A stretch of DNA of 32,000 bases, taken from NCBI GenBank assembly GCA_934177485.1, contig CAKPPF010000001.1:324105-356104 (forward strand). Direction: 5' to 3'. The notes under the pieces were generated by a model, which was given only the letters and a program-made list of their open reading frames with translations, made no database searches and had not been told where the DNA came from. The first letter of the stretch is position 1. Every line of letters begins with the position of its first letter. The position numbers and the translations under genes were made by a program. The DNA comes from an uncultured Clostridia bacterium (GTDB taxonomy: Bacteria > Bacillota > Clostridia > TANB77 > CAG-508). Positions 5,041-24,775 of the stretch are shown here, one piece after another.

Positions 5041-5118
5041 TACAAGAAAAGTGGCTTTGTCACACTTTTCTTCTCTCAGATTTGAGTTTCCGAATGAAAT
5101 GAGGAAATATCAAAGGCA
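5041..5118 (-). ncRNA. Candidate small RNA encoded inside repeat copy A
   Basis: On the minus strand, TGcTATAAT (5125-5133) is followed by the M2 hairpin and the M1 stem with a TTTTCTT tail. The ends are predicted, not measured. Confidence 0.3.
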
Positions 5119-5205
5119 ATAGCTATTATAGCATATTTTGTTGAATAGAAAAATCTTCGATTTTTCCTATTCAACAAAAAGGGGCCACTATTTATACAGT
5201 GACCC
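5046..5205 (+). repeat. Mosaic hairpin repeat, copy A (modules M1-M2-M3-M4')
   Basis: About 94 percent identical by eye to copy B over roughly 135 nt. Contains GAAAAGTG..CACTTTTC, GATTTGAG-TTTCC-GAATGAAATGA-GGAAA, and TTGAATAGAAAAATC-TTCG-GATTTTTCCTATTCAA. Confidence 0.9.
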
Positions 5206-9361: not shown

Positions 9362-9440
9362 GGGTAAGAAAAGTGGCTTCGCCACACTTTTCTTCTCGCC
9401 GATTTGAGTTTCCGAATGAAATGAGGAAATCTCAAAGGCA
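9362..9440 (-). ncRNA. Candidate small RNA encoded inside repeat copy B
   Basis: On the minus strand, TGcTATAAT (9447-9455) is followed by the M2 hairpin and GAAAAGTGTGGC-gaa-GCCACTTTTCTT. The ends are predicted. Confidence 0.3.
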
Positions 9441-9523
9441 ATAGCGATTATAGCATATTTTGTTGAATAGAAAAATCTTCGATTTTTCCTATTCGACAAA
9501 AAAGGTAGGCACAAGACCTACCT
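9368..9523 (+). repeat. Mosaic hairpin repeat, copy B (M1-M2-M3-M4)
   Basis: Same module order as copy A. M4 is AGGTAGG-cacaaga-CCTACCT at 9503-9523. Confidence 0.9.
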
Positions 9524-15391: not shown

Positions 15392-15571
15392 ATGAGTAAT
15401 AACCAAAAATCATCACATATACAGTGCGACAACAATTGCGATCGCTGCTATATGTACGAGGACTGTCCTCATTTTGAGGATCACAAATCCGAACGTAACG
15501 GCTTGATTAAACGGTTAAAAAAACTGTTTAAAAAAAAGGATAAAGTTATAAGGACTTATCCTTTCAAGTAA
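15392..15571 (+). CDS. Small Cys-rich basic protein, 59 aa (below the ORF-track cut-off)
   Basis: AGGTGA 9 nt upstream. Translation is MSNNQKSSHIQCDNNCDRCYMYEDCPHFEDHKSERNGLIKRLKKLFKKKDKVIRTYPFK. It has its own promoter and terminator. G+C is visibly higher than in the neighbouring genes. Confidence 0.5.
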   Translation: MSNNQKSSHIQCDNNCDRCYMYEDCPHFEDHKSERNGLIKRLKKLFKKKDKVIRTYPFK

Positions 15572-15657
15572 GAGCTAATGCCTTTGACATTTCCTCATTT
15601 GATTCGGAAACCCAAATCGGCAAAAACAAAGGGTGACTTAGGTCACTCTTTGTTTTT
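15572..15657 (-). repeat. Mosaic hairpin repeat, copy C (M2-M1, reverse), which also acts as terminator of the small ORF
   Basis: GCCTTTGACATTTCCTCATTTGATTCGGAAACCCAAATCGGC, then AAAAACAAAGGGTGAC-ttag-GTCACTCTTTGTTTTT. Confidence 0.85.
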
Positions 15658-15684: not shown

Positions 15685-15760
15685 TTGTCAGTGGGGACGG
15701 AGTTTTTTGACAGAATTTTTCAAAATAAATTCTGTCAAAAAACTCCGTCCCCATTGACAA
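15685..15760. repeat. 34-bp inverted repeat (hairpin with 8-nt loop), probable bidirectional terminator at the asnB 3' end
   Basis: TTGTCAGTGGGGACGGAGTTTTTTGACAGAATTT (15685-15718) pairs with AAATTCTGTCAAAAAACTCCGTCCCCATTGACAA (15727-15760). The only imperfection is one G.T position. Confidence 0.85.
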
Positions 15761-15764
15761 TAAG

Positions 15765-17618
15765 TTACAAAATGATTTCAGGTTTATATGTTTCTAGCCA
15801 CATATTAACTTGGCATAGATAAGCCATAAGCTGAGGACCAGTCATGAGTTGACCAAACCATGGTCTAGAGAATGCACTACCATCTGTTTTTAATATATTT
15901 AATATATAATCTTTATTTAGTAAGCTATTTATTGGGGCATTTGGGTCTTGCATAATTTCTGTAAGCATGCTTTTTACAACTTTTAAATAGCTTGGATTAT
16001 GTGTTTTGGGATATGGACTTTTCTTTCTATTTACAATTTCGTCAGGTAATAAATCTTTTACAACGTGGCGCAATAAGCCTTTTTCTCTTCCGTTATATGC
16101 TTTCATTTCCCATGGTACATTCCACATATATTGAACTAACCTATAGTCACAAAATGGAACACGAAGTTCTAAGCCACTGTGCATACTCATTCTATCAGCT
16201 CTATCAATAAGAGTTTGCATAAACCAATTAATTGTTAAATAAGATATAATTCTTTTCTGTTTGGTATCTTCTGAATCGTTTGAAGCAAATTCAACATTTG
16301 AAATACTTTCATTATATCTAAAATTAATATAATCTTTCAAGTCTATCTTTTCTGATATATTTGTATTCAATAATTCTTGTCTTTCATCTAATGCTATAGA
16401 CCAAGGAAAAGTACCACTATTTAAAGCATCGTCCCTAAAAAACCATGGATATCCTGCAAAAATTTCATCAGAACATTCTCCGGATAAAGCAACTGTTGCA
16501 TAATTCTTTATATTTTTGCAAAACAAAAGCATTGATGAATCTACATCAGCCATACCAGGAAAATCTCTTGCAATCATTGCATCTTTTAAACAATTTGCAA
16601 GCTCTGGAGTATCTAGTACTATTGCATGATGATTAGTATTAAAAGCTTTTTGCATTATGTCTATATAATAATTATCGGAATTTGGTTGAAAATCACTTTT
16701 AACAAAATTCTTATCATTATCTACATAATCAACAGATAATGTTGTTAGTGGAGGCATATTCTTATATTTATAATATTTGCTAGCATAAGCAACAATTATG
16801 CTTGAATCTATACCACCAGAAAGCATTGCACATAAAGGTACATCAGATACTAATTGTCTTTTTATTGAATCATCTAATAAGTAATGTACTTTGTTACATG
16901 TTTCTTCAAAGCTGTCCTTATGTTCTTTTGTTTCCATTTTCCAATATCTAAAACTCTTAAAACCATCTTTATTATAAATTGCATAATGCGCAGGTTTTAT
17001 TTCGAAAATATCTTTAAATACACAAGTACCAGGCGTATGAGCAGGGCCTAATCCAAATAATTCACAGATTCCTTGTTTATCGATTTTAGTTTCAAAGCCA
17101 GGATAATTTAAAATAGCTTTAATTTCAGATGCAAATATTAGTGTGTTATTAAAAATAGTATAATATAAAGGTTTTATTCCAAAATGATCTCTTACAAGAA
17201 TTAGTTCTTGTTTATTTGAATTCCAAATAGCTAAACTAAATATACCATTAAACTCTTTAAAAATTTCAGGTCCATAATAAGCAAAAGCCTTTAAAATGAC
17301 TTCTGTGTCTGAGTAACCATTAAAGTCAAAACCAAGTGCAATCAAACTTTCTCTTAAATCATTTGCATTATATAATTGCCCATTATATACCATAGTGTAT
17401 GTAGTCTCATTATAAGTAAAACTCATTGGTTGTTTACCATTTTGAGCGTCTATAATAGTTAATCTTCTGTGTCCTAAGTTAATGTGTTTACTAGTGAAAA
17501 ATCCTTCTTCATCAGGACCTCGATGAGTAAGTGCTTTAGTTATTTTTTTTAATATAGCAATATTATTTTCATCTGATATATCATTATTTAAATTACAAAA
17601 ACCAGAATAACCACACAT
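15765..17618 (-). CDS. asnB: Asparagine synthase (glutamine-hydrolysing)
   Basis: GGAGG RBS. N-terminal MCG nucleophile, PP-loop LSGGIDSS, 617 aa. Confidence 0.9.
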   Translation of the reverse strand: MCGYSGFCNLNNDISDENNIAILKKITKALTHRGPDEEGFFTSKHINLGHRRLTIIDAQNGKQPMSFTYNETTYTMVYNGQLYNANDLRESLIALGFDFNGYSDTEVILKAFAYYGPEIFKEFNGIFSLAIWNSNKQELILVRDHFGIKPLYYTIFNNTLIFASEIKAILNYPGFETKIDKQGICELFGLGPAHTPGTCVFKDIFEIKPAHYAIYNKDGFKSFRYWKMETKEHKDSFEETCNKVHYLLDDSIKRQLVSDVPLCAMLSGGIDSSIIVAYASKYYKYKNMPPLTTLSVDYVDNDKNFVKSDFQPNSDNYYIDIMQKAFNTNHHAIVLDTPELANCLKDAMIARDFPGMADVDSSMLLFCKNIKNYATVALSGECSDEIFAGYPWFFRDDALNSGTFPWSIALDERQELLNTNISEKIDLKDYINFRYNESISNVEFASNDSEDTKQKRIISYLTINWFMQTLIDRADRMSMHSGLELRVPFCDYRLVQYMWNVPWEMKAYNGREKGLLRHVVKDLLPDEIVNRKKSPYPKTHNPSYLKVVKSMLTEIMQDPNAPINSLLNKDYILNILKTDGSAFSRPWFGQLMTGPQLMAYLCQVNMWLETYKPEIIL

Positions 17619-19450: not shown

Positions 19451-19564
19451 TTACTCTTTTTGTTATCGTCCGATTTAAATTTTTGACTGTAAAGAGAAAA
19501 TCCCAAAGGAAATGCATTTTGCTAAGTTTAATATAGTAGGAAATAAGAAATTTCTTACTATATT
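19451..19564 (+). repeat. Mosaic hairpin repeat, copy D (partial M1, variant M2, M5)
   Basis: CCGATTTAAATTTTTGACTGTAAAGAGAAAATCCCAAAGG matches the copy G variant. M5 is AATATAGTAGGAAAT-aagaa-ATTTCTTACTATATT. Confidence 0.75.
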
Positions 19565-19620: not shown

Positions 19621-19671
19621 AGATTTAAAAAAAACCCCGTTTTTCGGAAAGTATTTTTTAAATCTATTTTT
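19621..19671 (+). terminator. Hairpin plus T-run just downstream of the predicted promoter (possible pyrG leader attenuator, or terminator of the upstream operon)
   Basis: AGATTTAAAAAA (19621-19632) pairs with TTTTTTAAATCT (19654-19665) around an inner CCG-ttttt-CGG, followed by ATTTTTT. Confidence 0.4.
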
Positions 19672-19871
19672 TATATAGTAGGAATTTTGGAGAAATTTCC
19701 TACTATATAAAATGCTATAATCGCTATTGCCTTTGAGATTTGCTCATTTCATTTGCAAACTCAAATCGGCGAGAACAAAGGGCGACTAAAGTCGCTTTGT
19801 TGTTATATAGCAAAATCGAAGATTTTCTAAAACATAATTTAGTATTGTAGGGGCAGGTCTTGTGCCTGCCC
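19672..19871 (-). repeat. Mosaic hairpin repeat, copy E (M5-M2-M1-degenerate M3-M4, reverse)
   Basis: The 102 nt at 19700-19801 match 21574-21675 with a single mismatch. M4 is GGGCAGG-tcttgtg-CCTGCCC at 19851-19871. Confidence 0.9.
19728..19804 (+). ncRNA. Candidate small RNA encoded inside repeat copy E
   Basis: TGcTATAAT (19713-19721), then hairpin GCCTTTGAG-ATTTGC-tcatttcattt-GCAAA-CTCAAA-tc-GGC, then ACAAAGGGCGAC-taaa-GTCGCTTTGTTGTT. The ends are predicted. Confidence 0.3.
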
Positions 19872-19918: not shown

Positions 19919-21520
19919 ATGAACACAAAATACATATTTATAACAGGTGGAGTAGTATCAGGACTTGGAAAAGGAATAACTGCTGCATCATTAGGAAGAT
20001 TATTAAAAAATAGAGGATATAAAGTAACAATCCAAAAGTTTGATCCATATATAAATGTTGACCCAGGAACAATGAGCCCATATGAACATGGCGAAGTTTT
20101 TGTTACAGATGATGGAGCAGAAACAGATTTAGACTTAGGACATTATGAAAGATTTATAGATGAAAGTTTAACTAGAAATTCTAGTATTACATCTGGAAGA
20201 ATTTATCAAAATGTTATAAATAAAGAAAGAAGAGGAGATTATTTAGGAAAAACTGTCCAAGTAATTCCACATATAACAAATGAGATAAAACAAAACATAT
20301 ATAGCTTTGAAGATGAAGATATAGATATTGTAATAACAGAACTAGGAGGAACAGTTGGAGATATAGAAAGTTTGGCATTTTTAGAGGCAATACGTCAAGT
20401 AGGAATAGAAAAAGATGCAGAAGATGTAATGTATATTCATGTAACACTTCTCCCATACATAACAGGCTCAAATGAAATAAAATCAAAACCAACTCAGCAC
20501 TCTGTAAAAGAGTTGCAATCTTTAGGAATAAAACCAGACATATTGGTATGTAGAAGTGATATGCCAATACCAGATGGAATAAAGGACAAACTATCATTAT
20601 TTTGCAATGTAAAAAAAGAAAGTGTTATTGCAAATTTGACTGCAGATAATTTATATGCAGTACCTTTAATGCTAGAAAAACAAGGGTTAGCATTGCAAGT
20701 TTGTAAACACTTGAAACTTGCTAATATTGAACCACATAATGAAAAATGGGACGAAATGATAGGAAATATTAGAAAAGTAAAAGACGGAGAAGTAACAATA
20801 GGAATAGTTGGAAAATATGTAAAACTTGAAGATTCATATTTGTCTGTAACCGAAAGCTTGCATCATGCTGGTTTTGCAAATAATGTAAAAGTAAATATTA
20901 AATATATAGACTGTGAAACTGTTACAAGAGAAAATGCAAAAAGAATTCTTGGAGAACTAGATGGAATAATAGTTCCAGGTGGTTTTGGAAATAGAGGAAT
21001 AGAAGGAAAAATAAATACAGTAGAATATGCAAGAACAAATAATGTACCATTTTTAGGAATATGTTTAGGAATGCAAATGGCAGTTGTTGAATTTGCAAGA
21101 AATGTATTAGGGCTTTCAGATGCAAACTCAGAAGAATTTGATGAAAATTCAAAAAATCAGGTAATACATATTATGGATGAACAAAAAAATGTAGACAAAA
21201 AAGGTGGAACAATGAGACTTGGAAAATATCCATGTATATTAAAAAAGGATAGTCTAGCATATAAAGTTTATGGTAAAAAGGAAATATCAGAAAGACATAG
21301 ACATAGATTTGAGTATAACAATGACTATAGGGAAAAATTAGAAAATGCAGGCTTAATTTGTTCTGGAACATCACCAGATGGAAAATTAGTTGAAATAGTA
21401 GAAATTCCATCATTAGATTATTTTATAGCAGGACAATTTCATCCAGAATTTAAATCTAGACCAGATAAACCATCACCATTATTTGTTGGATTGGTTAAAG
21501 CTGCAAAAGAAAAAGTTTAA
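19919..21520 (+). CDS. pyrG: CTP synthase
   Basis: [22 protein letters not shown]-terminus, glutamine amidotransferase GICLGMQ, 533 aa. Confidence 0.97.
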
Positions 21521-21546
21521 AAAAGCGACTTTGAGTCGCTTTTTTT
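21521..21546 (+). terminator. Rho-independent terminator after pyrG
   Basis: AAAAGCGAC-tttga-GTCGCTTTTTTT. Confidence 0.8.
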
Positions 21547-21705
21547 ATATAGTAGGAAATTTCTCCGAAATTCCTACTATATAAAATGCTATAATCGCTA
21601 TTGCCTTTGAGATTTGCTCATTTCATTCGCAAACTCAAATCGGCGAGAACAAAGGGCGACTAAAGTCGCTTTGTTCTATAGCAAAAATCTTCGATTTTTG
21701 CTATA
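21546..21705 (-). repeat. Mosaic hairpin repeat, copy F (M5-M2-M1-M3, reverse)
   Basis: Near-identical to copy E. M3 is the perfect hairpin TATAGCAAAAATC-TTCG-GATTTTTGCTATA. Confidence 0.9.
21602..21678 (+). ncRNA. Candidate small RNA encoded inside repeat copy F
   Basis: TGcTATAAT (21587-21595), then the M2 hairpin and GAACAAAGGGCGAC-taaa-GTCGCTTTGTTC. The ends are predicted. Confidence 0.3.
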
Positions 21706-21749
21706 GAAAAAAACACTCTTTCACCGTTCGGAAAAACGGTAAAAGAGTG
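21706..21749 (-). terminator. Strong rho-independent terminator on the minus strand
   Basis: Read on the minus strand: CACTCTTTTACCGTT-tttccg-AACGGTGAAAGAGTG followed by TTTTTTT. Confidence 0.75.
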
Positions 21750-21754
21750 AGAGG

Positions 21755-21910
21755 TTACTTTAAGATACACTTCGTATCTATGGTATGCCATAAGGCGAGT
21801 TTAACTGGTGGAGTATAGCACTCACTTCCTCTAAAGCCAAACCAGGTTGCAACAAATATTATTGCAACAAAAATATATATAATAGTAGCCTCCTCGGAGA
21901 ACCACCACAC
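21755..21910 (-). other. Orphan transcription unit: small hydrophobic peptide (type I toxin-like) or structured small RNA
   Basis: A frame is open from 21922 or 21910 to the TAA at 21755-21757. It encodes ..WWFSEEATIIYIFVAIIFVATWFGFRGSECYTPPVKLALWHTIDTKCILK. A GAGGAGG lies inside it, and no ATG, GTG or TTG follows the predicted transcription start. Confidence 0.4.
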
Positions 21911-21912
21911 AT

Positions 21913-21941
21913 ATATTAACATAAAGCAAAGGAAATGTCAA
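21913..21941 (-). promoter_or_regulatory. Strong SigA-type promoter on the minus strand
   Basis: On the minus strand: TTGACA (21941-21936), 17-nt spacer, TGtTAATAT (-10 at 21918-21913). Confidence 0.6.
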
Positions 21942-22052: not shown

Positions 22053-22081
22053 TTGACATTTAATATAAAAGGGTATATTAT
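22053..22081 (+). promoter_or_regulatory. groESL promoter
   Basis: TTGACA (22053-22058), 17-nt spacer, TATTAT (22076-22081), immediately upstream of CIRCE. Confidence 0.7.
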
Positions 22082-22082
22082 T

Positions 22083-22416
<334 letters not shown>

Positions 22417-24176: not shown

Positions 24177-24425
24177 ATGACAAACACAAATATTACAAAC
24201 TTTAGAAAAGATATATATGAAATGTTAGAACAAACAATAAAATATAATGAGCCTATAAATATATCAACCAAAAATGGAAATGCTGTTGTTTTATCAGAAG
24301 AAGACTATAATGGGCTAATAGAAACTGTTTATTTATCTAGTATTCCTAAAATGAGAGAAAAATTGATAAAAGGAAAAAATGTACCTTTAGAAGATTGCGT
24401 AGCAGAAGATGAGGTGGAGTGGTAA
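24177..24425 (+). CDS. Type II antitoxin, Phd/YefM family
   Basis: AGGAGG RBS, 82 aa. ITNFRKDIYEMLEQTIKYNEPINIS...AVVLSEEDYNGLIETVYL is the YefM fold pattern. Directly abuts the toxin gene. Confidence 0.85.
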   Translation: MTNTNITNFRKDIYEMLEQTIKYNEPINISTKNGNAVVLSEEDYNGLIETVYLSSIPKMREKLIKGKNVPLEDCVAEDEVEW

Positions 24426-24692
24426 ATGTACAAAATAGTATATACTAAAACTGCAGTAAAAGATATTCCACATTTAAAAGCCTCTAATTTAGATAAAAAA
24501 ACATTAGCATTAATTGAAATTTTAAAAGAGAATCCGTTTCAAAATCCACCACCATATAAAAAACTTGTTGGAGATTTACAGGACTTATATTCGAGAAGAA
24601 TTAATATAAAACACAGATTAGTATACCAAGTATATTCAACAGAAAAAACAGTAAAAATAGTTAGTGTGTGGACACATTACGAAAACATATAA
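24426..24692 (+). CDS. Type II toxin, YoeB/Txe family mRNA interferase
   Basis: 88 aa. YSRRINIKHRLVYQV...VKIVSVWTHYE is the YoeB C-terminal signature. Confidence 0.85.
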   Translation: MYKIVYTKTAVKDIPHLKASNLDKKTLALIEILKENPFQNPPPYKKLVGDLQDLYSRRINIKHRLVYQVYSTEKTVKIVSVWTHYENI

Positions 24693-24695
24693 ATA

Positions 24696-24775
24696 GAACA
24701 AAGCAACTTTATATCGCTCTTTGTTCTTGCCAGATTTGAGTTTTCAACTGTAAGGAGATAATCTCAAATGGCGTA
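24696..24775 (+). repeat. Mosaic hairpin repeat, copy G (M1, variant M2)
   Basis: GAACAAAG..CTTTGTTC, then CCAGATTTGAGTTTTCAACTGTAAGGAGATAATCTCAAATGG. Confidence 0.8.

Follow-up and report, generated by a model that had tools for sequence, protein, structure and literature searches.

Genomic context and comparative material

The window analysed here is a stretch of 32,000 nucleotides from an uncultured bacterium of the Clostridia, and the unit of interest lies on its minus strand. It is flanked by the 3' end of pyrG (19919-21520) and by the groES-groEL operon (from 22135 onward), both of which are on the plus strand, so that it is divergent from groES and convergent with pyrG. Beyond its terminator the minus strand carries nothing but a repeat element and the pyrG end, and a same-strand gene 3' of the terminator is present in none of the allele types, the sister species included. 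The original prediction, made from this one sequence, had proposed that the unit encodes a hydrophobic peptide without a canonical start codon or, alternatively, a structured small RNA (sRNA).

Copies of the unit were taken from 24 contigs that carry an identical GroES, near-identical PyrG variants or GroES variants. They span the host species and a sister species and represent four allele types:

Lineage 1, within the species: the window, L081-83, L086, L087, L090, L111 and L113
Lineage 2, within the species: L084, L085, L088, L089, L098, L099 and L103
Lineage 3, within the species: L100-L102
Fourth allele type, the sister species: L104-L108

The pyrG DNA of L104 is 90.6% identical to that of the window; at third codon positions the two diverge by 22% in pyrG and by 16% in groES. 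The corresponding figure for pyrG, groES and groEL within the species is only 0.4-7%.

The surroundings of the unit hold several other features. The groES promoter (TTGACA-17-TATTAT, 22053-22081) is separated from the groES start by a CIRCE-like inverted repeat, TTAGCAGTC-N9-GACTGCTAA (22083-22109), which is kept in every relative inspected, so that groESL is presumably under HrcA control. Directly after groEL, at 24177-24692, there is a yefM/yoeB-type pair (PhdYeFM antitoxin and YoeB/ParE toxin), and its absence from two contigs of the same species (L086 and L088) makes it a presence/absence polymorphism. An intergenic repeat family of about 150 nt occurs in both orientations and in seven copies in the 32 kb (5044-5183, 9366-9505, 15569-15630, 19453-19507, 19667-19801, 21541-21713 and 24714-24768). 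Its three hairpin modules are AACAAAGnGAC..GTCnCCCTTTGTT, GCCGATTTGAGTTTcCGAATGAAATGAGgAAATCTCAAAGGC and one that is AT-rich, with GGAATTTCGGAGAAATTTCC at its core. In appearance the family resembles a mobile element of the REP or MITE kind, and Rfam gives no match to it at the gathering threshold. Lineages 2 and 3 lack the repeat copy that directly follows the terminator of the unit (21520-21705), and in another species (L021) a related copy is found downstream of pyrG. Elsewhere in the window, a 34-nt inverted repeat at 15685-15760 (97% complementary, 8-nt loop; TTGTCAGTGGGGACGGAGTTTTTTGACAGAATTT and its complement) sits just downstream of the minus-strand gene 15765-17618 and is unusually long for a terminator.

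Promoter and terminator

The elements of the unit, in the direction of the putative transcript, are:

21936-21941, minus strand: -35 box TTGACA, invariant in the four allele types including the sister species
21913-21921, minus strand: extended -10 box TGtTAATAT, 17 nt after the -35 box, with TAATAT at 21918-21913
21885-21905, minus strand: P1, 5'-terminal hairpin GUGGU(U)CUCC-GA-GGAGGCUAC, predicted in every allele
21846-21868, minus strand: P2, hairpin GUUGCAA-loop-UUGCAAC, with a compensatory change of U-A to C-G
21826-21845, minus strand: near-invariant, mostly single-stranded segment CCUGGUUUGGCUUUAGAGGAA, the same in the window and the sister-species allele
21808-21825, minus strand: P3, hairpin GUGAGU-GCUAU-ACUC(C)AC, whose sequence varies between alleles
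21779-21792, minus strand: P4, hairpin UAUGG-CAUA-CCAUA, stem invariant
21764-21778, minus strand: P5, hairpin GAUAC-GAAGU-GUAUC, with U-A changed to U.G in lineage 2
21749-21756, minus strand: anti-Shine-Dalgarno-like segment AACCUCUC, just 5' of the terminator and invariant in all alleles
21707-21749, minus strand: intrinsic terminator, a stem of 13-16 bp followed by U7

The near-consensus promoter that had been predicted is present, with TTGACA at 21941-21936 and a 17-nt spacer that ends in TGT before TAATAT. By itself the match is not above chance (30 promoter-like sites versus 33.5 expected), and the weight of the putative promoter lies in its conservation across alleles rather than in the match alone. 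None of the four allele types departs from the two hexamers, the TG or the 17-nt spacing. The spacer itself varies at five positions, and upstream of the promoter the alleles can barely be aligned. On the plus strand, a weak promoter-like site at 21916-21945 matches at 9 of 12 positions, and no plus-strand terminator was found within the unit.

The strong terminator expected about 160 nt further downstream was confirmed; in the window it is a 16-pair stem (21749-21714) followed by T7. Terminator-like sites are enriched (8 versus 1.6 expected). Across alleles the terminator shows two double (compensatory) changes, U-A to C-G, and two one-sided changes that preserve pairing, and in lineage 2 it abuts the pyrG stop codon. 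Transcription would start at about 21907-21905, and the predicted transcript would be about 200 nt long in the window and about 187 nt in the other alleles.

Predicted structure of the RNA

With this start, the transcript would open directly with P1, in which all changes between alleles are one-sided (G.U to A-U, U.G to U-A) and keep the pairing. In P2, GUUGCAA/UUGCAAC is replaced by GUCGCAA/UUGCGAC, and lineages 2 and 3 have a loop of 4 nt instead of 9. What had been taken for a direct repeat, two copies of TTTGTTGCAA, turns out to be the two arms of P2, since TTGCAA is self-complementary. The segment that follows, CCUGGUUUGGCUUUAGAGGAA, has within the species a sole change, U to G at one position in lineage 3.

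In the window P3 reads GUGAGU-GCUAU-ACUC(C)AC; lineage 3 has GUGUGG-GUUA-CCAC(C)AC and the sister species GUAAGC-GUUAU-GCUU(C)AC, and the bulged C is kept in all three forms. Three of its pairs were counted as carrying double changes, and a fourth (G-C in L100 versus U-A) is also double-changed but was hidden by a misalignment of one column. The two small hairpins noted earlier in the DNA, TATGG-cata-CCATA (21792-21779) and GATAC-gaagt-GTATC (21778-21764), do exist and correspond to P4 and P5. The P4 loop has a 1-nt deletion in two strains, a change that fits a hairpin and shifts the reading frame, and the P5 loop changes from GAAGU to UAAUU in the sister species with the stem kept. A third pairing proposed at that time, GGTGG with CCACC, is not kept across alleles; GUAG occurs in other alleles, and nothing compensates for it.

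Two long-range helices are candidates. A CUGGU/ACCAG helix closing around P3 is predicted both by RNAalifold and in single-sequence folds, and an AGAGG/CCUCU helix bracketing P3-P5 is possible by prediction; both are invariant and so offer no covariation. For the second of these, AACCUCUC could pair with AGAGG at 21832-21828, again with no variation.

In the alignment used for testing (A3), paired cells account for 99.5%. Four pairs show double changes, a number that none of 500 shuffles reached, and slid controls gave 0-1 such pairs. Six double changes in all fall in P2, P3 and the terminator; in P1 and P5 only one side of a pair changes, and P4 and the long-range helices show no variation. 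Insertions and deletions fall in loops and linkers and have lengths that are not multiples of three. When the terminator is left out, the RNA body has modest folding z-scores (-1.7 to -2.5), and the case for a structured RNA is for that reason made by covariation and conservation and not by folding energy. P4, most of P5 and both candidate long-range helices never vary and are therefore predicted parts of the model.

Several readings of single elements were considered and dropped. A first RNAalifold result paired GUGAGU with ACUCGC, and was abandoned as lineage 3 and the sister species covary for the local P3 hairpin. P3 (GAGUGCUAU) is not the right arm of a CIRCE operator; it varies between alleles, and the CIRCE of this locus reads GACTGCTAA. 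Likenesses to a PyrR site (through AGAGG) and to an ANTAR dual hairpin failed on loop size and found no Rfam match.

The unit has sequence features expected of a gene for a stand-alone sRNA: a promoter and an intrinsic terminator of its own, both conserved, and a predicted structure that is supported by covariation in P2, P3 and the terminator. The structured-RNA half of the original prediction, which was to fall if relatives showed no conserved structure, is supported by the conserved promoter and terminator and by compensatory base-pair changes; across the alleles compared, the structure is kept.

Conservation between and within species

Of the 122 core columns, 15 distinguish the window from the sister species, four of them in compensatory pairs and six in the loops of P2, P3 and P5. 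The two sequences agree throughout columns 17-45 (29 nt) and 68-95 (28 nt), and the chance of each identical block is about 0.002 at the neutral (synonymous) divergence of about 20%. We infer that the structure and the promoter are under constraint, with purifying selection acting between the species. This conclusion draws on one between-species comparison, since among alleles of the species itself the core does not stand out from neutral sites in its conservation: it differs by 1-2%, versus 2-6% at synonymous sites of the flanking genes, which is neutral-like.

The periphery of the unit behaves differently from this core. Within the species the P1-P2 region differs by about 30% (a figure partly inflated by the alignment) and the terminator by about 22%, and in both regions the difference within the species equals or exceeds that between the species. 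The alleles are also mosaic, in that lineage 2 has the P1 of the sister species and lineage 1 has a P2 similar to the one found there. These patterns point to allele exchange or to accelerated change in what appear to be peripheral modules.

A more specific proposal is that the sRNA is a recently acquired, modular one, whose 5' hairpins, P3 and terminator have been diversified or swapped between strains around a short frozen core. Modules that diverge by about 20-30% within a species whose flanking genes differ by 2-6% at synonymous sites would fit it, but we hold it as a speculative idea with a low probability. If it were true, the pattern would fit an RNA in genetic conflict, for example an antitoxin-like RNA or an anti-phage or decoy RNA with allele-specific recognition, and would suit an ordinary housekeeping regulator less well.

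Family searches and distribution

A comparison with known RNA families matched none of them: the 4227 models of Rfam 15 gave no match in the whole window at gathering thresholds. Below those thresholds (E < 10), the RNA body was matched by SprC at 19 bits, versus a gathering threshold of 100, and fragments of SraG, sno_ncR3 and CncR1 reached in from the terminator at scores far below threshold; the other weak matches lie on the terminator or on the hairpin of the downstream repeat. ARAGORN found no tRNA or tmRNA.

Searches for homologues of the unit by blastn and nhmmer against 80 groES loci of relatives found none, and neither did inspection by eye and Smith-Waterman alignment of 13 syntenic pyrG-groES spacers. 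A covariance model of the RNA (R1), run over 89 sources, recovered only the window, a contig of the same species (L097) and the sister species (L104); its match to L011 was not significant (E = 0.54). For the two species, 24 contigs cover the spacer, and the same model finds the RNA in every one of them; in 86 loci of other relatives it gave no credible match. Exact patterns from the variable parts matched nothing among genome contigs, and two patterns from the invariant core, searched in 185,579 species-representative genomes, each matched only L104. Three pattern scans of viral contigs gave no match, nor did a blastn search in distant mode of phages and plasmids, and the scan of metagenome contigs matched only a contig of the same species. 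The literature search on sRNAs between pyrG and groES in Clostridia found nothing pertinent.

The next relatives (L091 and L092, with PyrG 92-94% identical) lack the RNA unit; their spacer is 221 nt long and contains an ordinary pyrG terminator. The unit is, as far as these comparisons reach, a lineage-restricted insertion in a variable slot, confined to two sister species, because it is absent from the next relatives and from the viral, phage and plasmid searches, and was met in metagenomes only in the same species.

In the wider clade the pyrG-groES spacer is a variable cargo slot (L091-L096, L114-L117, L037, L012, L020, L063 and L007). According to species it is empty (221 nt) or holds a gene for a 113-aa WG-repeat protein, a gene for a 182-aa protein with an RNA-polymerase alpha CTD domain, an 80-aa DUF2442 gene, genes for cysteine-rich small membrane proteins or other minus-strand open reading frames.

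Such a distribution could also be produced by a neutral or selfish insertion, in which a chance or relic promoter happens to stand beside the hairpin that terminates the convergent pyrG, any transcript being a by-product. The occurrence in two sister species only, the short spacer with an ordinary pyrG terminator or unrelated cargo genes in the nearest relatives, the terminator that abuts the pyrG stop codon in lineage 2, the modest folding z-scores and a core that is within the species conserved no more than neutral sites are all in keeping with it. It does not explain, however, why P2 and P3, neither of which has a role in pyrG termination, show double compensatory changes, why the promoter elements are fixed inside an otherwise hypervariable spacer, or why the 29-nt and 28-nt blocks show no difference between species that are about 20% diverged at synonymous sites. 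We regard a neutral insertion as unlikely, although among the alternatives to a functional sRNA it is the one to be taken most seriously.

Proposed function

The reading that we favour, with a probability of roughly 60%, is that the unit is a real, selected, non-coding sRNA that acts in trans. It has the anatomy of a stand-alone sRNA gene and, judged by the alleles compared, is not a conserved coding sequence. The RNA matches no described family, and is most likely an uncatalogued, lineage-restricted sRNA. Its length would be about 190-200 nt, and it would comprise five hairpins and a terminator.

In the mechanism that we propose, the housekeeping-type promoter with its extended -10 box would start transcription at about 21907-21905, and the transcript would run to the intrinsic terminator at 21749-21707. 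It would fold into P1, P2 and then a core that contains the sequence-variable P3 and the adjacent small hairpins P4 and P5. Its working surface would be the invariant, mostly unpaired segments CCUGGUUKGGCUUUAGAGGAA, CAG..CUCGCCU and AAAGAACCUCUC, through which it would act in trans, and the hairpins and the terminator would give it stability. The gene would be young or mobile, in the variable slot between pyrG and groES.

One option for the action of these segments is base-pairing with mRNAs, in which CCUCU and CUCC motifs could mask ribosome-binding sites. When the three conserved segments were scanned against the 31 translation-initiation regions of the 32-kb window, no target stood out, the best having -14.3 kcal/mol. 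The other option is protein binding through the invariant segments, and a protein role may be about equally compatible with the invariant P4-P5 stems.

Taken as an alternative to a base-pairing regulator, this second option makes the transcript an RNA that binds or sequesters a protein, with the invariant junction and the tandem hairpins P4-P5 as the binding site. The stems of P4 and P5 do not vary, most alleles share one P4 loop, and the flanking linkers are nearly invariant, which suits joint recognition of sequence and shape, and no convincing mRNA partner was found in the window; the target screen, however, covered only 32 kb of the genome. Against it, no known protein-binding motif was recognised, no Rfam model matched, including those for PyrR sites, CsrB-like RNAs and 6S RNA, and the loops of P4 and P5 have 4 and 5 nt and are not the paired hexaloops of ANTAR substrates. 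We think it improbable that the RNA works in this way instead of by base-pairing, and rate it a little below the neutral insertion.

The trans-acting sRNA also has to be set against an orphan cis-regulatory leader, that is, a riboswitch or attenuator whose expression platform is the terminator and whose downstream gene has been lost. The layout of a promoter, about 150 nt of structured region and a terminator does resemble a Firmicute leader, but no allele, that of the sister species included, has a same-strand gene downstream, and there is no conserved antiterminator, the window segment that could pair with the terminator 5' arm not being complementary to the changed arm of lineages 2 and 3. 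Even at E < 10 Rfam gave no riboswitch or leader match, and a relic would not be expected to keep compensatory changes; we consider a leader very unlikely.

The open reading frame

The frame on which the peptide proposal was based does exist. It is open in the window allele for 55 codons, from the ATG at 21922 to 21755, with one hydrophobic stretch; the ATG lies inside the promoter spacer, and the GTG at 21910 is at or before the likely transcription start. A stop-free run of this length, which had been called unexpected, is not unusual here, as there are dozens of spurious antisense open reading frames of 30-130 aa within 6 kb. The candidate Shine-Dalgarno sequence GAGGAGG is located at 21895-21889, not at 21899-21893 as first given; there it forms the 3' arm of P1, and most alleles have AAGGAGA instead.

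Examination of the homologous loci, which had been named as a check, found the frame carrying both frameshifts and stops, as expected of a sequence that is not coding. Relative to the window, lineages 2 and 3 have insertions or deletions of 1, 7 and 1 nt, with a further 1 nt in two strains, and in both lineages the ATG is immediately followed by TAG. In these lineages and in the sister species the frame is shifted upstream of the hydrophobic stretch, so that it reads ..VVLQGDYFYIY.. and the transmembrane helix is lost. A deletion of 1 nt creates a stop in L084 and L089 (..LALWQP*), no canonical start lies inside the transcript in any allele, and no other frame is open across the alleles.

The 55-aa peptide had no word-sharing match among 5.8 billion proteins and belongs to no Pfam or NCBIfam family, the sole match being YoaJ (E = 0.13, 12 bits versus a cut-off of 54). 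The open reading frame is, on the comparison of alleles, an accident of one of them, and the proposal of a small hydrophobic membrane protein or type I toxin of 51-55 aa, started at ATT or ATA after GAGGAGG, can hardly be maintained: the 55 open codons and one hydrophobic stretch of the window speak for it, but frame, helix and start codon are lost in other alleles, the supposed ribosome-binding site belongs to P1, and neither a homologue nor a family was found.

Significance and comparison with known RNAs

If it is expressed, the unit would add an uncatalogued structured sRNA from an uncultured, low-GC lineage of human-gut Clostridia. It would also mean that an apparent membrane-peptide reading frame is really an RNA gene, which calls for caution in the annotation of small proteins from metagenomes. 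The spacer between two housekeeping loci, pyrG and groES, is moreover a slot for differing small cargo in close relatives.

With the terminator-type leaders and riboswitches of Firmicutes the unit shares a promoter, a structured domain and an intrinsic terminator, but it differs from them in being without a downstream gene, a conserved antiterminator or an Rfam match. It resembles the mRNAs of type I toxins such as Fst, TxpA and BsrG in that the predicted transcript is short and strongly structured and contains a hydrophobic open frame in one allele; unlike in those toxins, neither the frame nor the helix nor the start codon is conserved, and there is no family match.

The closest likeness to the proposed sRNA is offered by RoxS/RsaE and SR1, which are stand-alone, intrinsically terminated, trans-acting sRNAs of Bacillota. 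Although the unit differs from them in having no sequence or structure match in Rfam and in being limited to two sister species, it has in common with them an intergenic position, a housekeeping-type promoter of its own, a length in the range of about 100-200 nt, a 5' hairpin followed by further hairpins, a Rho-independent terminator, and C/U-rich unpaired motifs that could pair with Shine-Dalgarno sequences. An intrinsically terminated bacterial sRNA is in itself of a very common kind; what is mildly unusual here is the hypervariable periphery around a frozen core within one species, and the location in an intergenic cargo slot beside groESL.
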